Source: Patescibacteria group bacterium
GTDB lineage: Bacteria > Patescibacteriota > Doudnabacteria > UBA920 > O2-02-FULL-48-8
Direction of reading: 5' to 3'
Assembly (NCBI GenBank): GCA_036278915.1
Contig: DASUKB010000004.1
Location: 9,441-73,440, forward strand
DNA length: 64,000 nucleotides
Shown piece by piece: positions 2,698 through 51,381 of the stretch (position 1 is its first letter; each line of letters starts with the position of its first letter). Below the pieces are notes generated by a model, which was not told where the DNA came from, did not search any database, and saw nothing but the letters and a program-made list of their open reading frames with translations. The position numbers were made by a program, and so were the translations under genes.

Positions 2698-3030
2698 CTA
2701 AAGATACTTTGTAAATTCTTCCTTCAACTTTTTTTCTACGGCATCTTTAAGCTTTAAATCCGAAATATCTTTATGGTGCGGTCCGGGATTGATGACCACT
2801 CTTCCATCTTTAAGCTTGGCGTAAGCGGCTACCAAAATGTCGTCTTCATCTCTTACCATATGGTCATGATACATTGAGCCGTAATACACGCTATAATCCT
2901 TGCTTACGGTTATAGGTATTTGAGAACCATCCAAAACCATACTTTTTATCACGGATTTGCTTAATTCTCCGGTGTTTAAAACAGACAGAGAATTATTGTA
3001 GTCAATTTCTCTTCCTTCAGGATTTTTCAT
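2698..3030 (-). CDS. hypothetical protein (110 aa), overlaps alaS stop by 4 nt
   Basis: ORF only; 4-nt overlap with upstream alaS suggests co-transcription. Confidence 0.4.
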   Translation of the reverse strand: MKNPEGREIDYNNSLSVLNTGELSKSVIKSMVLDGSQIPITVSKDYSVYYGSMYHDHMVRDEDDILVAAYAKLKDGRVVINPGPHHKDISDLKLKDAVEKKLKEEFTKYL

Positions 3031-4772
3031 TCTATAATCGCCTTTATCCGGCGCACGCCAGCGGAGACGGCCTCTTCTTTTTGGATCTTAAACTGGCCAA
3101 TTTGGCCCGTATGCTCCACATGGGGGCCGCCACAGAACTCACGGGAGATAATCTCCCCCAAACTCTTGTCATATATAGTATACACCGAAACTTCGTCCGG
3201 GTACTTTTCCCCGAACACTCCTATGGCCGAAAGATCGCGTGCTTGCGTAAGCGGCATAGTCTCCCTTTTCACGCTCAAATCCCTTTTTATCCATTCGTTG
3301 ACGAACCGTTCGACTTCGGTTTTCTGCTCTTCGGTCAATTTTTGCCCGTGCGTAAAATCAAACCGCGTGCGCTCTTCGGTAATGTTACTGCCTTTTTGCC
3401 AGACACCCGGGCCCAAAACTTTCCGCAGAGCTGCGTTCAGCAGATGCGTGGCTGTGTGCAGGCGCACGACTTTGTCGGAATGGTCTGCAAGGCCGCCTTT
3501 GAACTGCCCGGCAGATGCGGTGCGGGAAAGTTCCTGGTGTTTTTTAAATTCCTGCTCGAATGCCGCAGGGTCCGAGACATTGGCAAACTCGCGCGTGAGT
3601 TCAAACGGAAATCCATAAGTTTGAAAGAGGTCGAAGGCTTGCGCCCCCGAAATGTCCGGATTTTTTTCCAAAATCTTTAGACCACGGCCGAGCGTAGTGC
3701 GGAATTTCAATTCCTCTTTTTTAAGTTCGATTTCTATTCCTGGATTTTTTAGCTCCGGGTAGGCATGCGAATAATTTTCGATTATAACATTGGCAATTTC
3801 CGTGGTGAAGTCATGTTCGATGCCCAACTTTTGTCCATAAGTTACGCTGCGACGGATAAGCCTGCGCGCAATGTAACCGCGATCTTTATTTGAAGGTACC
3901 ACGCCGTCGGCCAGCAAAAAAGTTGCCGCGCGCATATGGTCGGCTATAATGCGCTCGGATTTTTTGTCCGAAGTTTGCTCCAGCGATTTAATCTTATCAA
4001 TAATCGCCGAAAGGATTTCGGTTTCATAAACGCTGTTTTTATTTTCCAAAATCGCGGCCATGCGTTCCAGCCCCATGCCGGTATCTACGTTGCGCTGCGC
4101 AAGCTCTGTAAATTTGCCATCTGCTTGCTTTTCGTATTGCATGAAGACGTTGTTCCAAATCTCCACCCAATTCGGATCATTATGGGTGTCCTGGAAACTT
4201 GCCGGAGCGTCTTCTGTGCCGGTCCAGTAGAACATTTCGGTATCCGGTCCGCAGGGCCCAGTGACACCCGGCGGTCCCCACCAGTTATCTTTTTTAGGCA
4301 AATACGCAATCTGCCCTGGCTCAAACCCGAGTTTGGTCCAAATTTTTGCCGATTCTTCGTCGCGTGGCGCATCCGCATCTCCGGCAAACACGGACACCGC
4401 GAGTTTTGATTTGTCTAAATTCAGCCAGTCGCTGCTTGTTAAAAATTCATACGACCAGATGATGGACTCCTCTTTCCAATAGTCGCCCAGCGACCAGTTG
4501 CCGAGCATCTCAAAAAAAGTCAGATGCGTGTCGTCCCCGATTTCATCCAAATCATCTGTCCGCAGACACTTCTGGACATTGGTCAGGCGGCGGCCTTCCG
4601 GATGCGATTGCCCCAGTAAATATGGCACCAGCGGATGCATGCCAGCCGTAGTAAAGAGGACTGTCGGGTCATTGGCCGGAACAAGCGATGCCGACGGGAT
4701 AATTTTATGGCTTTTTTCCTGGAAAAACTCCAGGTATTTCTTTCTTAAATCATTGGCAGTCATATGCCGCAT
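3027..4772 (-). CDS. alaS: alanine--tRNA ligase, short form lacking the C-terminal C-Ala domain; alternative start at 4763 (MTANDL)
   Basis: N-terminus LRKKYLEFFQEKSHKIIPSASLVP...TAGMHP and editing-domain HxxxH motif (HTATHLLNAALRKVLG); ends after CGGPHVEHTGQIG at 581 aa. Confidence 0.85.
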   Translation of the reverse strand: MRHMTANDLRKKYLEFFQEKSHKIIPSASLVPANDPTVLFTTAGMHPLVPYLLGQSHPEGRRLTNVQKCLRTDDLDEIGDDTHLTFFEMLGNWSLGDYWKEESIIWSYEFLTSSDWLNLDKSKLAVSVFAGDADAPRDEESAKIWTKLGFEPGQIAYLPKKDNWWGPPGVTGPCGPDTEMFYWTGTEDAPASFQDTHNDPNWVEIWNNVFMQYEKQADGKFTELAQRNVDTGMGLERMAAILENKNSVYETEILSAIIDKIKSLEQTSDKKSERIIADHMRAATFLLADGVVPSNKDRGYIARRLIRRSVTYGQKLGIEHDFTTEIANVIIENYSHAYPELKNPGIEIELKKEELKFRTTLGRGLKILEKNPDISGAQAFDLFQTYGFPFELTREFANVSDPAAFEQEFKKHQELSRTASAGQFKGGLADHSDKVVRLHTATHLLNAALRKVLGPGVWQKGSNITEERTRFDFTHGQKLTEEQKTEVERFVNEWIKRDLSVKRETMPLTQARDLSAIGVFGEKYPDEVSVYTIYDKSLGEIISREFCGGPHVEHTGQIGQFKIQKEEAVSAGVRRIKAIIE

Positions 4773-4919: not shown

Positions 4920-6176
4920 TTATTTGAACTGGGCCAGAGCGGCATCCATCTGAGGATCACGTCCGGCGTTCACGTCGTCTGCGGTGAGATCAACTTTGAT
5001 GTCAGGGTCCAGGCCGATTTTATCGATGGCGCGGCTTTGAGGAGTCAGCCACTTGGCGACGGTAATTTTAAGCTCAGAGTTGTCCTTGAGCGTGGAAAGT
5101 TCCTGGACTGAACCTTTGCCAAAGGTTTTTTCGCCGATCAAAGTTGCAAGCTTGTAATCCTGCAACGCGCCCGACAAAATTTCCGAAGCCGAAGCCGAAC
5201 CGCCGTTGACCAAAACCACTGTCTGAATCCCTTTGAGCTGGTTGACTCCGGATGCCGGGTATTGTTTGATGTTGCCCGCGTAATCTTTTTCTTGGACTAC
5301 AGTTTGGCCGGAATCAACCCAGTTGGAAGCGATAGACACTGCTGTGTCCAAATATCCGCCTGGATTGTTGCGCAAATCCAAAATTATACCGTTATCGCCG
5401 TCTGCCAGAACTTTTTCCACGGCCGCGTCAAACAAACCTTTAGTGTCGTCGCCAAATTGCGAAACGGTTATAATGGCCAACTTATGGTTGTTAACATCTT
5501 TTTCCGTGACATTTACGCTTTTAACATTGATCTGGGCGCGCGTGATTTTTATGTCCTGCGCGCTTTTTTGCCCGACGTGGAGGATGCTGAGCGTAACTTG
5601 GGTATTGGCAGTGCCGCGAATTTTGCTTACCGCTTCATCCACTGTCATGCCGGAAGTTGATTCGCCGTTGATGGCCAGAATCGCGTCGCCTGCCTGCAGC
5701 CCGGCTTTTTGCGCTGGCGTGTCGTCCAGCGGCGCAATTATTACCAACTGATTATTCTTTTCGCCAACTTCGGCGCCTATGCCCTCGAACGTGCCGGAAA
5801 GCTGATCTGCAAAGTCTTTGGCTTGTTGCGGGTCAAAATATACTGTGTAAGGATCCCCGGCTGCGGAAACCAAGCCGGAAATAGCGCCGTAGAGCAGTTT
5901 TTGCTGGTCCAGTGGCCTATCCACGTACTTGGAATTGAGCTGGTCAAGCGCGTCCCAAAGCAGGCTGTAGTCAGCCGTGCCCGATGGCGGCGGCGTGCCT
6001 TTGCTAATGTGCAGTTGGCCGTTGATTTTGAGTTTCTGCGCGCCAAAGGCGAATCCTGCGTAAAAAATCAGGCCAAGAATAATCAGGCCGGCGGCGATTT
6101 TACGCGCGCTGGCCGGAATTTTATCGGAGAATTTCTTATTCGGAGTATTTGTGTCTGAAACTTCTGGAGTATCCAT
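4920..6176 (-). CDS. ctpA: carboxyl-terminal processing protease (S41 family) with PDZ domain and N-terminal membrane anchor
   Basis: S41 motifs LRNNPGGYL, GGSASASEI (Ser) and TFGKGSVQ (Lys); TM helix near the N-terminus. Confidence 0.8.
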   Translation of the reverse strand: MDTPEVSDTNTPNKKFSDKIPASARKIAAGLIILGLIFYAGFAFGAQKLKINGQLHISKGTPPPSGTADYSLLWDALDQLNSKYVDRPLDQQKLLYGAISGLVSAAGDPYTVYFDPQQAKDFADQLSGTFEGIGAEVGEKNNQLVIIAPLDDTPAQKAGLQAGDAILAINGESTSGMTVDEAVSKIRGTANTQVTLSILHVGQKSAQDIKITRAQINVKSVNVTEKDVNNHKLAIITVSQFGDDTKGLFDAAVEKVLADGDNGIILDLRNNPGGYLDTAVSIASNWVDSGQTVVQEKDYAGNIKQYPASGVNQLKGIQTVVLVNGGSASASEILSGALQDYKLATLIGEKTFGKGSVQELSTLKDNSELKITVAKWLTPQSRAIDKIGLDPDIKVDLTADDVNAGRDPQMDAALAQFK

Positions 6177-6202: not shown

Positions 6203-7057
6203 CTAGTGCACAGATTTGCTCGCGCGGAACCAGTTGGCCACAATCACCAGATATTTGCGCAGTGTAATTCCCAAATACACAAATTGGTTAAACAAAAAAT
6301 TATGTTGGCTCGCGTAGTGCTTGCGATAAAAAATCGACATCGCATCGTGCGCCCACTCCACTGATCGAAATTTTATGCCCTTAGACGAACCGTAAAGGTA
6401 GTGCGTAATTTCGGCTTTGGGAAAATATACGACTTTGTACCCGGCTTCCTTTGCCCGCCAGCAAAAATCCAAATCTTCGCCATACATAAAAAATGATTCA
6501 TCCAGCAAACCGATCTTATCTATAACAGGTTTCCTGACCATGAGAAACGCACCGACTACGGAGTCCACTTCCATCTCCTGATCCACAGAAACATTGCGGT
6601 AGTTGTAATCGGAATATTGGCGAAAACCAAAAAGCCGCAAGAAAGCGTTTGCCGGATTTGGAAAACGCCGGCGGCTTGCCTCGTGCAGGCGGCCATCGGG
6701 CAGAAGCACTTTGCAGCCCAGAATTCCCACATCCAGGTGCTGTTCCAAATATCTTAGGCAGAGATCAAACGTGTCCGGCCGCACAGTGGTGTCGGAATTC
6801 AAAAGCAGGACGTACCTGCCCAAGGCCTGCCGGATGGCGACATTGTTGCCCTTGGAAAATCCCAAATTGGCGCGATTTTCAAGTAATTTAACCTGCGGAA
6901 ATTTTGTCCAAACCATTTCCAAACTGCCATCCGTGGAACCGTTGTCGGAGACTATCGCTTCAAATTGAAAACTACCCGCGGATGCAAAAACTGACCGGAG
7001 ACACTGCTCCAGCAAATCCTTAGTATTGTAATTGACTATGATAACCGATAAATCCAT
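6203..7057 (-). CDS. glycosyltransferase family 2
   Basis: MDLSVIIVNYNTKDLLEQCLRSV... GT-A N-terminal signature, DxD region. Confidence 0.8.
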   Translation of the reverse strand: MDLSVIIVNYNTKDLLEQCLRSVFASAGSFQFEAIVSDNGSTDGSLEMVWTKFPQVKLLENRANLGFSKGNNVAIRQALGRYVLLLNSDTTVRPDTFDLCLRYLEQHLDVGILGCKVLLPDGRLHEASRRRFPNPANAFLRLFGFRQYSDYNYRNVSVDQEMEVDSVVGAFLMVRKPVIDKIGLLDESFFMYGEDLDFCWRAKEAGYKVVYFPKAEITHYLYGSSKGIKFRSVEWAHDAMSIFYRKHYASQHNFLFNQFVYLGITLRKYLVIVANWFRASKSVH

Positions 7058-31737: not shown

Positions 31738-32643
31738 TTAGCCACCAGTCGGCCTGGGTGGCGGCGGAATACCCTGCTTCTGGGACTCCGGCGGCGGTTC
31801 GGAACTGTGGTGGTTTTGATCGACTCCAATCACAATTCCGCCGACCACGGCGGCGGCAACTACGGGCCACACCCAGCACGGGGCGCCCCAGGCTCGGCAC
31901 GGCTTGTGCACGGGTACCGGAGGCGGTGGCGGAGTTGGCGGCAGTACGATTTTGACGTTGTTGACTGCCACAGCGATAGGTCCCGGAGCTGGCGGTACAA
32001 CAGTCGGCGCAGGTGCAGGCTGCGCTTTGACCACCACGTCCTTCGGAGGGTTGACCACCATAGGCGGTACGTCTCGGAAACCCGAGACGTTGCGACACCG
32101 TTCGTAGATGATCGGCCGCACTGCTTGTCCGGCGAATGGACCCGAGGTGATCGGAATCGCTTCGTCCAATTCCCAACCAGTGATCGGACCGCTCGTTTTG
32201 TTAACCGGATAGTCCCGGTCGACATACACGGCAGAATTTCCATTAGCATCAGGGTGGCTACCAGAAGCCATCGGGAAGTCGCCGGCCACGCCACCGTTCT
32301 GAATGGTCTTGGGATGGACCTTGCCATCCTGAAACTGGCGCACAACCTGATCCCAGAATTCCTGTGGCAGCGGAGTGAGTATGGATCCGAAATAAGCTCC
32401 AGCCATTCCGCGACGGATCTTATCCTTCGCGGCTTGGTAACTGGCTGCATCCGACAGCACCATGTTGGTGATCTGCGGCTTCTCACTGGGTTCCACTCCG
32501 GTAATCGGCGGAACCATCCTGTCTGGCACCAGCGGATTCACCGCGTAATGGCGCCAAATGAAAGGCTTCTCGGTCTTGTTCTGTGCCTGCGCGGGAAGCG
32601 CAAAGCACAAACACACGGCCACGAACACCACTAATCTCTTCAT
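31738..32643 (-). CDS. GC-rich secreted proline-rich protein with C-terminal TM (start at MKRLVV, Met 32643)
   Basis: Signal peptide MKRLVVFVAVCLCFALPAQAQ; AAAGGAGGGA SD 5 nt before this ATG; PPTPPPPPVPV low-complexity; ~60% GC. Confidence 0.45.
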   Translation of the reverse strand: MKRLVVFVAVCLCFALPAQAQNKTEKPFIWRHYAVNPLVPDRMVPPITGVEPSEKPQITNMVLSDAASYQAAKDKIRRGMAGAYFGSILTPLPQEFWDQVVRQFQDGKVHPKTIQNGGVAGDFPMASGSHPDANGNSAVYVDRDYPVNKTSGPITGWELDEAIPITSGPFAGQAVRPIIYERCRNVSGFRDVPPMVVNPPKDVVVKAQPAPAPTVVPPAPGPIAVAVNNVKIVLPPTPPPPPVPVHKPCRAWGAPCWVWPVVAAAVVGGIVIGVDQNHHSSEPPPESQKQGIPPPPRPTGG

Positions 32644-44880: not shown

Positions 44881-45462
44881 TTAATTGCCGGATTTATTTT
44901 TAAAATTTTTAAATTTTATATTAAGCCAATCCAAAACAGCTAATTGGTCATCAACGGTTGCCCGTCGGATTTGAGATAGCAGATGTATCTTGTCAGGCTT
45001 TGCCATAGCAGTATTTTGGAGTCCTTCATTACAATTCGTACAGATTGCCCTCAGGTTTGAAGGCGTGTCCTCTCCTCCCTTTGACTTATCAATTATATGA
45101 CCTAAGGTTAAACGTATTGTACGCTCAGGATGAAACGGATCAGCATCGCCAGCTGCCACACCACAACTCTGGCATGTAAATCCATTTCTCTCTAAAACAA
45201 AGGCGCGTGTTTCTTTCGAAATTCCTCTTGCGAAGGCTGGACGCCGTTTTGATGTTTCAAGTAAGTACTCTCCTGGCTTTAAATTAGCTCGATCCTTATG
45301 TGACAAGATCTGGTATCCTTCTTCATCACGTAATTCTCTAAGTCTACGCCCCCATTCTGCAACCCAGCCAGATGCCTCTTGTATTTCTTTGGCATGAATC
45401 ACTCTCCCTTTATTTGCAAGCAAAAAATCAAGAATCTTCCGCTTAGACCCGTTTCTTGTCAT
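44881..45462 (-). CDS. HNH endonuclease, putative type II restriction endonuclease
   Basis: CQSCG...H..D...N.......CTNCN HNH/zinc-ribbon motif; 20-nt overlap with upstream C5-MTase. Confidence 0.6.
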   Translation of the reverse strand: MTRNGSKRKILDFLLANKGRVIHAKEIQEASGWVAEWGRRLRELRDEEGYQILSHKDRANLKPGEYLLETSKRRPAFARGISKETRAFVLERNGFTCQSCGVAAGDADPFHPERTIRLTLGHIIDKSKGGEDTPSNLRAICTNCNEGLQNTAMAKPDKIHLLSQIRRATVDDQLAVLDWLNIKFKNFKNKSGN

Positions 45463-46414
45463 ATTGTTCTAACGCTCTAATGATCTGAAGTGCAACGGCC
45501 TTCGCTACAGGGGGCGGAAAAGCATTTCCGATTTGCCTATAAGCCGTAGTCTTTCTTCCAAAAAATTTCCAATTATCAGGGAATCCCTGTATTCTTGCAG
45601 CCATTCTAACAGTCAATTTAGGTTGGCCGTTGATTGGAAAATCGCTGGTCGGCGAATCGTCGGCTATTCCTCTTCCATCGACTCCTAATTTCTGCCATTG
45701 CATCTTAGCTCGCGTTGGGCCGAGGTCAGGGCCGCCATGTTTCGTAGAACCACCAACTAATGTGGGTCCAGCACCAACGGCATTTAATGCCCATTTTTTT
45801 GCACCTGGCCAGCCATTTGATGACATTAAATCTTCTATTAATTCGCCAACATTTACAATCTTATTCGAACCCGATGGCCATTCAAAATATTTTTCGATGC
45901 CTTTACTGAAGCCCACCAATACAAATCTTGACCGTAACTGGGGGGTGCCAAAATTATGTGCGTGTAAAATCGTCCAATCAGTCCAATACCCTAACATTCC
46001 CAAGGATTGCTGAATAGAATTCCTATAGTTCTCAAATTTTCTGGAAGCAAATCCTGGGACATTTTCTATAAGTATGGCCCGAGGGGCAGCTTCACTGATT
46101 ATTCTTAAAGTTGCTGGGAATAAATCCCTTTCATCATTTTGCCCAAGTTGCTTTCCTGCAATTGAGAATGGTGGACAAGGCACGCCGCCAGCAATCAAAT
46201 CAACCTTCGCATATTTATTTGCGGAGAATGTCTTTAGATCTCCATTTATAACATTTAAATCAGGTCTGTTTAACAGAAGTGTATTACAATAATTTGCTTC
46301 TATTTCAACAGCTCCTATGCAACTGAAACCAGCTTGTTCAAGTCCAATAAATTGGCCGCCTCCGCCAGCACATAGTTCTAGAACAGTTTTTTTGTTTGAT
46401 ATTTTTTTATTCAT
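45443..46414 (-). CDS. DNA (cytosine-5)-methyltransferase
   Basis: LELCAGGGGQFIGL (motif I), GGVPCPPFSIAG (PC motif IV), ENV (VI). Confidence 0.8.
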   Translation of the reverse strand: MNKKISNKKTVLELCAGGGGQFIGLEQAGFSCIGAVEIEANYCNTLLLNRPDLNVINGDLKTFSANKYAKVDLIAGGVPCPPFSIAGKQLGQNDERDLFPATLRIISEAAPRAILIENVPGFASRKFENYRNSIQQSLGMLGYWTDWTILHAHNFGTPQLRSRFVLVGFSKGIEKYFEWPSGSNKIVNVGELIEDLMSSNGWPGAKKWALNAVGAGPTLVGGSTKHGGPDLGPTRAKMQWQKLGVDGRGIADDSPTSDFPINGQPKLTVRMAARIQGFPDNWKFFGRKTTAYRQIGNAFPPPVAKAVALQIIRALEQYDKKRV

Positions 46415-47790: not shown

Positions 47791-49197
47791 ATGACACGCA
47801 CATATATTTTGGATACGATTGGGAAAACAGGAGAAACAGTAAAGCTAAACGGCTGGGTGGCGGTCAGGCGCGACCACGGCAAACTTATCTTTTTGGATTT
47901 GCGCGACAGCACAGGTCTCATCCAGCTGGTGGTCAATCCCAAAGTTTCAGCCGAAGCGCATGCCGCGGCCAGTGACGTGCGCAACGAATACGTGCTTGAA
48001 GTAGAAGGCAAGGTCAACCCTCGCATGGAAAATCAAATCAACTCCCAACTGCCCACCGGCAAAATTGAACTAGAGGTGACCAAACTCACGATCTTAAATA
48101 AATCCGAACCGTTGCCGTTTACAGTGGACACCGACGGCTACGAAATCAGCGAAGAAGTCCGGATGAAGTATCGGTACTTGGACTTGCGCCGCCAAAGACT
48201 TAACAATGATCTCAAAAGCCGCCACAAGGTGATTAAATTTATACGCGATTTCCTTTCCGAGCGCGGCTTTACCGAAGTAGAAACCCCCGACCTTTCCAAA
48301 TCCACGCCCGAAGGCGCGCGAGACTATTTAGTGCCTGCCAGACTGCATCCGGGAACTTTTTATGCCCTGCCGCAAAGTCCGCAGCAATACAAACAGCTGC
48401 TCATGGTCGCGGGCTTGGAAAAATATTTTCAAATTGCGCGCTGCTTCCGCGACGAAGACACGCGCGGCGACCGCCAGCCGGAATTCACGCAATTGGATTT
48501 GGAAGCAAGCTTCGTGACGCAGGAGGACATCCTGGCTCTCAACGAAAAATTACTCATAGACATTGTTACCAATCTCTACCCTAACAAAAAAATCCAGGAA
48601 CTACCCTTCCCCCGCCTGACGTACAAAGAGGCTATGGAAAAATACGGCACCGACCGGCCCGACCTGCGAAAAGACAAAAACGATCCGGAACTTTTGGCCT
48701 TCTGCTGGATTTTGGATTTCCCATTCTTTGAAAAAGAAGATGAGGGTGGGTGGACTTTCACTCACAACCCATTCTCCGCGCCAAAGCCGGAATTCTTGGA
48801 CGACCTGCTCCAGCAGAAAAATATAGGCGAGATCCTGACCACACAGTACGACGTGGCGCTCAACGGATTTGAAATCGGCGGCGGGTCCATACGCAATCAC
48901 CGGCCCGAAGCGCTGAAGGCTGTGTTTAGTATTATGGGTTTTGAGGACGAGAGAATTGAAAAAGACTTCGGACACATGCTGCAGGCGCTCTCGTACGGCG
49001 CGCCACCGCACGGCGGCATTGCCTGGGGTTTGGACCGGCTGGTGACGATTCTTCAAGGTGAACCAAACATCCGCGAAGTTATCGCCTTCCCCAAAACCGG
49101 CGACGGCCGAGATCTTATGATGGACGGTCCCGCCCCCGCCACCGACAAGCAGCTCAAAGAACTGCATATAAAAGTAGAGATTCCTAAAAAGAAGTAA
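47791..49197 (+). CDS. aspS: aspartate--tRNA ligase, short form without GAD insertion
   Basis: Class II motifs FRDED, QLD, GGGSIR; N-terminal OB fold; 468 aa. Confidence 0.85.
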   Translation: MTRTYILDTIGKTGETVKLNGWVAVRRDHGKLIFLDLRDSTGLIQLVVNPKVSAEAHAAASDVRNEYVLEVEGKVNPRMENQINSQLPTGKIELEVTKLTILNKSEPLPFTVDTDGYEISEEVRMKYRYLDLRRQRLNNDLKSRHKVIKFIRDFLSERGFTEVETPDLSKSTPEGARDYLVPARLHPGTFYALPQSPQQYKQLLMVAGLEKYFQIARCFRDEDTRGDRQPEFTQLDLEASFVTQEDILALNEKLLIDIVTNLYPNKKIQELPFPRLTYKEAMEKYGTDRPDLRKDKNDPELLAFCWILDFPFFEKEDEGGWTFTHNPFSAPKPEFLDDLLQQKNIGEILTTQYDVALNGFEIGGGSIRNHRPEALKAVFSIMGFEDERIEKDFGHMLQALSYGAPPHGGIAWGLDRLVTILQGEPNIREVIAFPKTGDGRDLMMDGPAPATDKQLKELHIKVEIPKKK

Positions 49198-49198
49198 C

Positions 49199-49263
49199 AA
49201 CTCCCCCAACCCCCTCTTTAGTCAAAGAGGGGGTGATCGAACGCCAGTTCGATCGGGGGAGTT
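49199..49263 (+). repeat. GC-rich structured element: 9-bp outer stem enclosing two hairpins (CCCCCTCTTT-agtc-AAAGAGGGGG and gatcgaac-gcca-gttcgatc)
   Basis: aactccccc...gggggagtt closing stem; directly after aspS stop. Confidence 0.55.
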
Positions 49264-49283
49264 CTGAATGAGTTGATACAATC

Positions 49284-49301
49284 GTCGACTCATGAGTCGA
49301 C
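49284..49301. promoter_or_regulatory. 18-bp perfect palindrome GTCGACTCATGAGTCGAC, candidate operator 10 nt upstream of the small AbrB-like ORF
   Basis: perfect dyad symmetry. Confidence 0.45.
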
Positions 49302-49311
49302 TCAAACTTAA

Positions 49312-49503
49312 ATGAAACACAAAGCAAGCAGATTGAGCAAAGTAGGAAGGAGCGCAACAGGAGTCATAATACCTGCCGTCATTTTAGGCGAGCTTGGTTG
49401 GCACAAACGACAACTCGTGTTGGTCAAAAAAGTCCCCCGCGGGATTCTCATAATTGATGCAATTACAAAACATGATCACAAAAAATCTAGAAAAAATTCT
49501 TAA
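49312..49503 (+). CDS. AbrB/MazE/SpoVT-like small DNA-binding protein (63 aa)
   Basis: KVGRSATGVIIPAVILGELGW...RGILIID resembles swapped-hairpin AbrB/MazE fold; palindrome upstream. Confidence 0.4.
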   Translation: MKHKASRLSKVGRSATGVIIPAVILGELGWHKRQLVLVKKVPRGILIIDAITKHDHKKSRKNS

Positions 49504-49933
49504 ATCCAATAAAATCAAATACGAGATCGTGGAGCATCGGAAAGTCTACACGGCTTTTGATGCGGCTGAAACGCAAGATCTCAAACTGACCGAAGTCGTG
49601 AAGGCTGTGTTGTTGAAAGGAAAAAAGGGTTTGTATTTGGCTGTATTGCCTGCTGGTAATAATTGCGATTTCAAATCCTTGGGCAAATTAACTGGCGATA
49701 GAGTTTCCATGGCCAAAGAGGCGGATATCAAAAACAAGCTAAAAACCAAAATTGGTCTTATCGCGCCGTTCGGCTCGCTTTATAAATTGCCCGTTTACAT
49801 AGACAAAAAACTTCTCAAAAATAAAAAGCTGAACATCCCCGCAGGGTCCTACACGGAATCAGTGATTATGAACACGAAAGATTATGTTAATTTAGAAAAT
49901 CCAGTGCAAGGGAATTTTTCAGTTAGGAAGTAA
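49472..49933 (+). CDS. YbaK/ProX-family aminoacyl-tRNA deacylase (ORF-track start 49454)
   Basis: IKYEIVEHRKVYTAFDAAET...KAVLLKGKKG...GLIAPFG YbaK-like conserved positions. Confidence 0.55.
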   Translation: MITKNLEKILKSNKIKYEIVEHRKVYTAFDAAETQDLKLTEVVKAVLLKGKKGLYLAVLPAGNNCDFKSLGKLTGDRVSMAKEADIKNKLKTKIGLIAPFGSLYKLPVYIDKKLLKNKKLNIPAGSYTESVIMNTKDYVNLENPVQGNFSVRK

Positions 49934-49943
49934 CCCCTCCCAA

Positions 49944-50021
49944 CCTCCCCTTATCCTAAGGGGAGGAGTAAACCGAACCAGGTTGCAGCTTGGTTTTACC
50001 CCCTCTTAGAATAAGAGGGGG
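49944..50021 (+). repeat. second copy of the GC-rich hairpin module (cctcccctta-tcc-taaggggagg and ccccctctt-agaat-aagaggggg)
   Basis: second hairpin near-identical to that at 49210..49233. Confidence 0.55.
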
Positions 50022-50062
50022 TGCATAACACAAGGATTATCGGGAGAGTTAGAAACAAGTCT

Positions 50063-50764
50063 ATGCGCATCAAATTAGAACAACATCAATTCGAGGGGCC
50101 GTTGGATCTGCTGCTACAGCTTATAGAAGACCAGCAGATGGACATCACTGCCCTGGCACTGTCCGAAGTCACGGAGCAGTTTTTAAATTACGTCCGGTCA
50201 TTGCAGGAAAAAAACCCCACCAACCTGGCTGACTTTCTTATCATCGCGGCCAAGCTTTTGGTCATCAAATCCAAAGCCCTGCTGCCAAACCTGGATTTGG
50301 GCGCGGATGAGGAAGAGGCGGCGTTTGATCTGACCGCGCAGCTGCTCACCTACAAAAAATTCCGCGAAGTGGCGAAGTTTTTGAAAAATTTGGAAGCGCG
50401 AAGAAAACAGTCCTGGAGCCGCGAAACCGAATTTACCGATCGCGTAACCTTTTTGCCTGATCCGGAAGTAACCGTAGACGTTTTAGCGGGAACTTTAGGT
50501 AAACTCGCCACGGAACTTAAAGAAATCGTCAAACTGCCGGAAAAAGTTTTGGAAAAAGTCGTTTCCATAACCGAAAAAATCAACCACATCCAGGCGCTTA
50601 TCGGGCAAAAGGTAGAAACCAGGCTTTCCGAACTTCTAAAAGACGCAAGCGGCAAAACGGACGTCATCGTGACTTTCCTGGCGCTATTGGAACTGACCAA
50701 ACAGCGCATTCTCTCGCTTGACCAGGAAGAAAAATTCGCAGATATAATTATTAAGAAAAATTGA
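50063..50764 (+). CDS. scpA: segregation and condensation protein A (start at MRIKLEQ, 50063)
   Basis: FEGPLDLLLQLIEDQQMDITALALSEVTEQFL ScpA N-terminal signature. Confidence 0.8.
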   Translation: MRIKLEQHQFEGPLDLLLQLIEDQQMDITALALSEVTEQFLNYVRSLQEKNPTNLADFLIIAAKLLVIKSKALLPNLDLGADEEEAAFDLTAQLLTYKKFREVAKFLKNLEARRKQSWSRETEFTDRVTFLPDPEVTVDVLAGTLGKLATELKEIVKLPEKVLEKVVSITEKINHIQALIGQKVETRLSELLKDASGKTDVIVTFLALLELTKQRILSLDQEEKFADIIIKKN

Positions 50765-50835
50765 CCTAATTACTAATTGATCTAATTTCTAAACTTTAGG
50801 TCAATCAGAAATTAGTAATTAGGAATTTTTACTTT

Positions 50836-51381
50836 ATGGATCTCAATAAACTTAAGTCGCAAATTCTCTCCATTTTATTTGTAGCCAGCAAGCCGGTAAG
50901 CATTAAAGAGCTTACGGAAACTTTCGGCATGTCCGAATCCGACATCAAGGAAGCCGTGGAAGAAATCGTTTCGGAAAACGACACGTCGGGTATAATTCTC
51001 CTGGCGCACAACGACCGGCTGCAGCTTGCTTCCAATCCGGAAAACAGCAGCCAGGTCAAAAAATTCCTGTCTTTGGAGCTGCGGGAGAAGCTCACGGAAG
51101 CAGCGCTTGAGACTCTGGCGATAATTCTCTACAAACAGCCGGTGTCGCGCGCGGAAATAGAAAACATCCGCGGCGTCAACTCGCAGTATAGCATCCGGCA
51201 GCTGCTCATACGCGGACTTATAGAAAAAAGTTCGTCGGCCCAAGACCGGCGCGTGCAGAATTACCAGACGACTCATGAATTTATGCAGACGCTAGGCATC
51301 ACAGATATGCGCAAACTCCCTGATTTTGAAACGCTCACTCAAAATATCCAGCTGCCGGAAAACAAACCGGACCAATCCTAA
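50836..51381 (+). CDS. scpB: segregation and condensation protein B
   Basis: ILFVASKPVSIKELTE... tandem winged-helix ScpB pattern. Confidence 0.8.
   Translation: MDLNKLKSQILSILFVASKPVSIKELTETFGMSESDIKEAVEEIVSENDTSGIILLAHNDRLQLASNPENSSQVKKFLSLELREKLTEAALETLAIILYKQPVSRAEIENIRGVNSQYSIRQLLIRGLIEKSSSAQDRRVQNYQTTHEFMQTLGITDMRKLPDFETLTQNIQLPENKPDQS

Follow-up and report, generated by a model that had tools for sequence, protein, structure and literature searches.

We analysed a 64-kb stretch of DNA (hereafter the window; GC content 47%) from a Doudnabacteria-lineage Patescibacteria group bacterium (GenBank assembly GCA_036278915.1, contig DASUKB010000004.1), in which two palindromic elements lie between the genes aspS and scpA, element 1 at 49199..49263 and element 2 at 49931..50051, with a small AbrB-like gene and ybaK between them. 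In our judgement both elements are likely to be copies of a selfish, non-autonomous DNA repeat of palindromic form, akin to repetitive extragenic palindromic (REP) sequences and to Rickettsia palindromic elements (RPEs), that colonises the spacers at gene ends in this Doudnabacteria-type genome. A preliminary description, made from the letters of the window, had suggested that the hairpins might be REP-like or resemble MITEs (transposable elements of the miniature inverted-repeat type), and this suggestion is upheld: they belong to a multi-copy family that crosses phyla, varies at orthologous sites and has some of its copies in frame within genes. By analogy, the behaviour of this family matches that of REPs and RPEs, and its distribution suggests that the repeat is probably mobile.

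Element 1 begins 1 nt past the TAA stop codon of aspS. It had been described as 65 nt long, with a 9-bp outer stem enclosing two hairpins, and we found exactly this structure, a complete palindromic repeat forming a three-way junction with zero mismatches. Its outer arms AACTCCCCC/GGGGGAGTT close around the core hairpin of the family, ACCCCCTCTTT-AGTC-AAAGAGGGGGT (49209..49234, 11-bp stem), and a second, inserted hairpin specific to this copy, GATCGAAC-GCCA-GTTCGATC (49235..49254, 8-bp stem), at whose position in the junction other family copies bear different small hairpins, such as GCCGAAGGC or GGCGCTGGAGCGCC. The RNA structure prediction that the preliminary description had proposed gave a fold of -46.9 kcal/mol (z -8.3 relative to shuffled sequence), and the corresponding DNA fold had -29.5 kcal/mol (z -10.0).

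Element 2 is a 121-nt composite repeat, as determined from folds and from its alignment with composites of other genomes; it aligns lengthwise with composites from metagenome-assembled genomes (MAGs) of Doudnabacteria, Uhrbacteria and Deltaproteobacteria. It opens with TAAC at 49931, the TAA of which is the stop codon of ybaK, and its end is separated by 11 nt from the ATG of scpA (50063). In order, it comprises TAACCCCTCCCA, a hairpin CCTCCCCTTA/TAAGGGGAGG (49944-49966), a further hairpin (49975-49996), the core hairpin ACCCCCTCTTA/TAAGAGGGGGT (49998-50022), a spacer and the 3' arm GGGAGAGTTA (50042-50051). Alignment and refolding indicate that the 5' sequence TAACCCCTCCC pairs with this arm in an imperfect outer stem around the three hairpins. 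A second hairpin copy had indeed been noticed just before scpA, where it is present, with an extent (49944..50021) that proved too short for an element possessing a closing stem of its own. The 3' flanks of elements 1 and 2 read CTGAATG and GAAACAA, respectively, and neither element is assigned a strand.

The two elements share the hairpin CCCCCTCTT-N-AAGAGGGGG, which occurs at 49210-49233 and 49999-50021 and had no match in 100 shuffles of the sequence, bearing out the likeness originally seen between them. No third copy was found in the 64 kb, either in a scan for perfect hairpins or when 31 family members were run against it by BLAST; the sites 11471 and 59207, considered as further copies, were rejected as chance matches of 9-16 nt with no palindrome. 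The claim that these hairpins occur only here therefore stands; two unrelated hairpins, at 32069 and 46459, are similar to them in stem GC. The elements are not an assembly artefact, because an independent Logan assembly is 100% identical to the window over 12.2 kb. That contig ends at 50024, 2 nt past the core hairpin, which is the behaviour expected of a repeat, and two IMG/VR contigs (L121 and L124) likewise begin at a family copy.

To describe the family we scanned a collection holding one genome per GTDB species for the exact 20-nt hairpin ACCCCCTCTT-N(3-6)-AAGAGGGGGT, which was found in at least 117 stretches. In a second scan the core-hairpin pattern was sought in predicted viral contigs, and the genome and viral matches listed together came to 127 sites, to which the counts of sites, carriers and copies that follow refer. 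A family arm, defined as AAC[TGC]CC[CT]CC or its complement GG[GA]GG[ACG]GTT within 60 nt of the hairpin, accompanied 63 of the 127 sites, as against a chance expectation of about 0.001 per flank. T-tails were present at 15 of the 127, which are ordinary terminators whose match to the hairpin is due to chance; some such matches are expected, as a 10-bp stem has a probability of about 1e-6 and the collection contains very many hairpins.

Carriers with the same arms beside the hairpin span at least nine phyla. Among the Patescibacteria they include Doudna-, Uhr-, Sacchari- and Zambryskibacteria, and further carriers belong to Nitrospirota, several Deltaproteobacteria/Desulfobacterota, Dehalococcoidia, Gammaproteobacteria, Saprospiraceae, Thermoanaerobaculia, Cloacimonadales and FCPU426; copies occur in predicted viral contigs too. 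Some genomes hold several copies, at least six each in the Doudnabacteria MAG JACPFQ01 and in the deltaproteobacterial JAUSKU01, and three in JAJYIV01. BLAST with element 1 gave no match among the PLSDB plasmids, and among the INPHARED phages its sole match was a 33-nt hairpin in Haemophilus phage SuMu. Related composites of the AATCTCCCC type are present in two cultured Gammaproteobacteria, Acinetobacter sp. ANC 3929 (L034, ~5899-5985) and Rheinheimera pacifica DSM 17616 (L105, ~1861-1900), where AATC-type arms (AGGGGAGATT; TGGGGGAGATT) surround the same core hairpin; these strains are possible experimental hosts.

The units share one architecture, in which outer arms of the form (T)AAC-N-CCCCC...GGGGG-N-GTT(A) close one or more perfect hairpins and small extra hairpins are nested at the junctions. 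In the family hairpins, CCCCCTCTT/AAGAGGGGG and CCTCCCCTTA/TAAGGGGAGG, the 5' arm is all pyrimidine and the 3' arm all purine. We delimited 30 complete units, of 45-177 nt. In the smallest, TAACTCCCCCTCACCCCCTCTTAA...TTAAGAGGGGGTGAGGGGGAGTTA being an example, the unit is a single perfect hairpin of about 22 bp; larger ones nest extra hairpins as element 1 does, and others add the second conserved hairpin that is also present in element 2. Position 4 of the outer stem is non-Watson-Crick in 14 of the 30 copies, mostly T.C or G.A and seldom a G.U wobble. Immediately outside the arms the flanks are T...A in 15 copies and G...C in three, which is palindromic and not a direct repeat, and the position two bases outside AAC/GTT is Watson-Crick in 12 of the 30, that is, without complementarity.

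Presence and absence at orthologous sites could be compared in JACPFQ01, whose contig JACPFQ010000003 shares synteny with the window in three stretches, at ~68% nucleotide identity. After aspS this genome has no family element, and unrelated hairpins stand there instead; after ybaK it has a family element of different build, whose TAA again forms the stop codon; and its scpA-scpB spacer contains a composite family element that is absent from the corresponding spacer of the window (50764-50826), where we found an AT-rich inverted repeat, CCTAATTACTAATT...AATTAGTAATTAGG plus TGACCTAA...TTAGGTCA, unrelated to the family. In three other relatives (L126, L128 and L129) the family element is absent after ybaK, and a fourth (L127) has at this place only a short hairpin, which may be a remnant.

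Both window copies are intergenic, and elsewhere at least six copies lie in frame within five genes, encoding IleRS (twice), UvrC, a UvrD-type helicase, a Mur ligase and a GT2 glycosyltransferase. These inserts coincide with gaps in alignments to orthologues or PDB homologues. In the glycosyltransferase of JACPFQ01 (L025) the copy amounts to 21 residues, and the window orthologue, 61% identical, is gapped exactly there; in IleRS of a Desulfuromonadales genome (L052) each of the two copies falls in a gap of the alignment with a solved IleRS structure (PDB 8c9e). The UvrC, helicase and Mur ligase genes hold one copy each, read through in frame. Two of the three frames are open on each strand, giving peptides such as NSP..PPL..RGG..GEL, and at 8 of 88 TAAC arms, including those at ybaK in the window and in JACPFQ01, the TAA of the element is the stop codon of an open reading frame (ORF) of at least 100 codons.

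Elements of this kind are known, and the family resembles REPs and their mosaic clusters (BIMEs) in being made of short GC-rich palindromes, often clustered or nested, that lie mainly just downstream of ORFs between co-directional genes and have no terminal duplications. Short GC-rich stem-loops are repeated here as perfect 8-11-bp stems, in multiple copies in JACPFQ01, JAUSKU01 and JAJYIV01. Occasional intragenic REP copies have been reported, notably in DNA-repair genes (PMC3733652), and the family here has entered genes for UvrC and a UvrD-type helicase. There are also differences. In REPs one foot of the hairpin bears an unpaired tetranucleotide, GTAG or CGTC (PMC3733652, which also summarises the roles proposed for REPs), whereas the feet of this family read (T)AAC / GTT(A) and both tags are missing from the window copies and from the 30 tabulated arm pairs. 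The family stems are perfect and stand within a second conserved outer stem, and in the loci searched no RAYT gene (TnpA-REP, an HUH Y1 transposase) was found next to family copies. Moreover, REP families are described as species-specific and REPIN-RAYT systems as mostly vertically inherited (PMC6006769; bioRxiv 10.1101/2022.05.22.493013), whereas here about 40 nt are almost unchanged across at least nine phyla and viral contigs.

With RPEs the family shares the character of palindromic selfish DNA that is found both between genes and in frame within unrelated housekeeping genes, whose products gain an extra peptide by its translation (PMC10969869, PMC3733652); such in-frame insertion with read-through is what we observed for the six copies in five genes. 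RPEs were described as ~150 bp long and from Rickettsia (PMC10969869), in contrast to the 45-180 nt and many phyla seen here, a comparison made by description only. Like MITEs of the Correia, Chunjie and Nezha types, the family is non-autonomous, short and dispersed, has no coding capacity of its own, forms in-frame gene fusions and ends in terminal inverted repeats (AAC-N-CCCCC / GGGGG-N-GTT, imperfect at position 4). It differs from them in that the T...A at its flanks fits an extension of the palindrome better than a target-site duplication, and in that its minimal units, at 45-47 nt, are shorter than typical MITEs. A full-text literature search with the strings of the arms and hairpins gave nothing but unrelated matches to primers or promoters, and a search on MITEs and palindromic repeats in the candidate phyla radiation (CPR) returned general REP and RPE papers and nothing on this family, so that the AAC...GTT C5/G5 family itself appears to be undescribed in the literature searched.

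We then considered what could move the repeat. A Pfam census of 136 ORFs near copies yielded 149 families, none in more than three ORFs and belonging to unrelated housekeeping genes, and no recurrent neighbouring protein emerged among these ORFs. No parent insertion sequence with the same ends was found in 8-kb blocks, where the 25 most frequent families among the 136 neighbouring ORFs were inspected. A tblastn search of 1.05 Mb of loci with approximate RAYT and IS200 query sequences gave one weak match, at L049 (4789-5830), a gene for a Y1_Tnp (IS200-like) domain with a DnaA_C-like C-terminal domain that has a family copy 95 nt downstream; its N-terminal part appears to contain a frameshift. 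On both sides this gene has inverted repeats of its own, GGGGTCAG, a perfect 14-bp pair GGGTCAGGTCTACA/TGTAGACCTGACCC that fits the GGGGWSAS motif, and these repeats identify it as a "TIRYT" of subclass 2.1 (PMC3733652, PMC6006769). It is a candidate mobilising enzyme, but its inverted repeats are unrelated to the family, a single case in about 60 loci is within chance, and the proximity is probably coincidental.

The repeat would spread through an enzyme that acts in trans and recognises the hairpins. Our best guess is a single-strand transposase of the HUH/Y1 type, as in REP-RAYT and IS200/IS605 systems, because the conserved parts are the hairpins, target-site duplications are not visible and units may have as few as 45 nt. 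Copies landing in genes persist if they add a stop-free multiple of three bases, and are then translated as short inserts; in the third frame they give the host gene its TAA stop, as they do for ybaK in the window. The two window copies are probably near-neutral passengers inside an aspS-abrB-ybaK-scpAB transcription unit. By analogy with the REPs of E. coli one may conjecture that such stable stem-loops, which begin 0-1 nt past stop codons, hold up ribosomes at termination or retard 3' exonucleases.

Several points weigh against this interpretation. The window holds only two copies in 64 kb. Neither a transposase nor a parent element nor a target-site duplication was identified, the case for mobility being drawn from distribution: no duplication is visible in the 30 units, and the sole pair of filled and empty sites is too diverged for boundaries to be placed, the genomes with and without an element being only 60-70% identical. 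The presence of an element after ybaK in both the window and JACPFQ01, despite their divergence, could reflect functional retention and not repeated insertion. Finally, the requirement for an exact hairpin makes ours a biased sample for taxon breadth and copy numbers, and errors in the binning of MAGs could inflate the count of phyla.

Functional retention is the core of one alternative, in which the elements would be RNA or DNA signals serving the operon, as terminators or attenuators, stabilisers of mRNA 3' ends or regulators of translation, and would resemble one another across genomes through a shared host factor and not through mobility. We regard this as improbable, although it agrees with the placing of both window copies directly after a stop codon within a string of co-directional genes, with the recurrence after ybaK in JACPFQ01, with the extreme stability of the stems and with purine arms that, read directly, look like Shine-Dalgarno sequences; in E. 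coli, REPs stabilise upstream mRNA and stall terminating ribosomes. The preliminary description had likewise offered paired terminators or a structured RNA, and neither proposal was supported. A T-run is absent after either element and neither appeared in the terminator scan, whereas other hairpins of the window carry the A-run and T-run flanks of canonical intrinsic terminators. Rfam searches, evaluated at the gathering score and at E values up to 10, returned no known RNA family for the elements: the window reached the gathering score only for tRNA-Glu, the best E value over 49100-50150 was 1.3, and the covariance search envisaged for the 65-nt element was negative. The copies are tolerated in frame in genes for IleRS, UvrC, UvrD and a Mur ligase, where a terminator would be harmful, and relatives show the same gene order without the element. 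The two strands of element 1 give practically equal RNA folds (-46.9 versus -46.2 kcal/mol; element 2 is weaker on the minus strand) and, as noted, position 4 of the outer stem is non-Watson-Crick in almost half of the delimited copies, and because of these two observations we conclude that the elements are probably not selected as RNA.

A different kind of explanation makes the elements the borders of something larger. It had been proposed that the AbrB-like gene and ybaK were inserted as a two-gene unit between aspS and scpAB, the elements being the ends of the composite that brought them, and this would suit the fact that related elements flank both genes and occur nowhere else in the 64 kb, as well as the varying content of the aspS-ybaK spacer among relatives. 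We nevertheless consider it very unlikely, and the proposal had to be given up on the very comparison of synteny that had been suggested to refute it: all relatives examined have ybaK between aspS and scpA, and in L130-L132 the order aspS-abrB-ybaK is kept without any C5 element. Each element is by itself a complete palindrome, and the two differ in architecture as they do in length (65 versus 121 nt). In L129 a third and unrelated repeat of ~70 nt (..CCTGAGTTTATC.AAGG.A...GCCTTCGACAGGCTCAGGC..) stands on both sides of ybaK, at 2925-3000 after aspS and at 3465-3545 after ybaK, an arrangement resembling that of the window, which suggests that these spacers are colonised repeatedly and not that the genes moved together. 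Integron attC sites, or a cluster of these lacking an integrase, with the intervening genes as cassettes, would be a related possibility to which we attach hardly any weight. An attC site has an R'' box (RYYYAAC) and an R' box (GTTRRRY), extrahelical bases and an unpaired central spacer. The elements recall it in their TAAC / GTTA ends, which are like the inner R'' and R' boxes, in folding as a single strand with a variable, branched centre, in a size of 65-121 nt that is within the attC range and in lying just after ORFs, and a small AbrB/antitoxin-like ORF is typical cassette content. Their pairing, however, ends at TAAC/GTTA, with none in the RYYY/RRRY positions; the hairpin stems, and element 1 as a whole, are perfect, without extrahelical bases or an unpaired central spacer; neither the window locus nor the other loci showed a cassette array or a recurring recombinase, and no recombinase family recurs among the 136 neighbouring ORFs; and the copies are, unlike attC sites, scattered singly beside housekeeping genes or inside coding sequences.

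All genes around the two elements are on the + strand. Upstream, aspS (47791..49197 in the ORF listing) encodes 468 residues with Pfam tRNA-synt_2 (1.8e-113) and OB domains, and the GAD domain is absent. Its product differs in form from the AspRS of L129 (1151-2926), which in the same gene order has 591 residues and does contain the GAD insertion domain. Downstream lie scpA (50063..50764; PF02616), whose start was set by alignment with the relative L016, and, as a context gene, scpB (50836..51381). The YbaK-family deacylase originally reported is confirmed: ybaK (49472..49933) encodes a YbaK/ProX-family aminoacyl-tRNA deacylase of 153 residues (PF04073, E 8e-25), with its start at 49472 as in an identical NCBI protein of a "Patescibacteria group bacterium" (P0010), and its nearest named relatives are from Doudnabacteria. 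The order aspS-ybaK-scpA-scpB is syntenic in five related genomes (JACPFQ01 and four more), and ybaK is therefore taken to be resident at the locus.

The 63-residue AbrB/MazE-like ORF lies at 49312..49503, overlaps the start of ybaK by 32 nt and, judging from its homologues, would encode a small DNA-binding protein of the SpoVT/AbrB fold. A single-protein scan against 1.8 billion cluster representatives gave eight matches at E<=1e-3, six of which are small proteins of 57-82 residues. The assignment was sustained through these relatives: PF04014 (MazE_antitoxin) was matched by six of eight aligned sequences, the window ORF and seven homologues (best E 7.4e-7), and the window protein itself had no Pfam match at E<0.1; no PDB match was found by sequence profile. 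A homologue 70% identical also adjoins aspS, an AbrB-like gene stands between aspS and ybaK in L130-L132, and in L133 one lies after aspS with unrelated hairpins before it; at this junction other relatives carry ORFs for small membrane proteins or nothing. The ORF is a real gene, independent of the element, and, like ybaK, it is an ordinary resident of the locus and not cargo of the repeat. The AbrB-like gene is not bound to one downstream partner, since in some relatives (a contig of JGI 3300041966; L133, 1750-1981) it is followed by a small gene other than ybaK, either a 108-residue ORF with a 4-nt overlap and no Pfam match or a hydrophobic protein.

Between element 1 and this gene lies an 18-bp perfect palindrome, GTCGACTCATGAGTCGAC, which had been reported before and is indeed present at 49284..49301, with two GTCGACTCA motifs 12 nt apart. 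It is best read as a candidate operator of the small AbrB-like regulator, outside the repeat family, because relatives share such motifs at the same spacing and place: their AbrB-like genes have two to three CGT[AT][TG]ACG motifs spaced by 12 nt just upstream of the start codon. The operator-like sites are at 49270-49311 in the window, 360-396 in L130 and ~1560-1605 in L133, and the layout looks like a conserved autoregulatory operator of a small, little-known AbrB-like family.

Two further observations concern the surroundings. In several Doudnabacteria relatives, spacers at gene ends are occupied by another hairpin repeat family (ATCCTGA...TCAGGATTGCGAG), unrelated to the first, at L016 6990-7050, L128 3565-3640, L062 ~6515-6560 and upstream of the AbrB-like gene in L133, as well as the aspS-ybaK spacer of JACPFQ01. 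In the window, a gene for an HNH endonuclease overlaps one for a C5 DNA-methylase on the minus strand (44881-46414; domains precomputed on the identical Logan contig), just upstream of a gene for a sigma-54 activator, and the two may form a restriction-modification pair.

For the aspS-scpA locus these results remove the idea of a mobile abrB-ybaK cassette. They also have practical consequences, as copies of the repeat break assemblies (a copy marks the end of one Logan contig and of two from IMG/VR), donate stop codons and could pass for terminators, attC sites or RNA motifs. The family gives rise to small insertions in essential enzymes, among them IleRS, UvrC and UvrD-type helicases, and is a counter-example to the lineage-specific, mostly vertical REP families. 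A bolder reading, which we put forward only tentatively and think less likely than its opposite, is that the AAC...GTT ends and C5/G5 hairpins define an undescribed REP/RPE-like superfamily that passes horizontally among at least nine phyla, the CPR included, possibly by way of phages, and repeatedly writes peptides into essential proteins. If truly mobile across phyla, the repeat would be a compact marker, and a possible driver, of genome plasticity in the CPR and in other streamlined uncultivated lineages.

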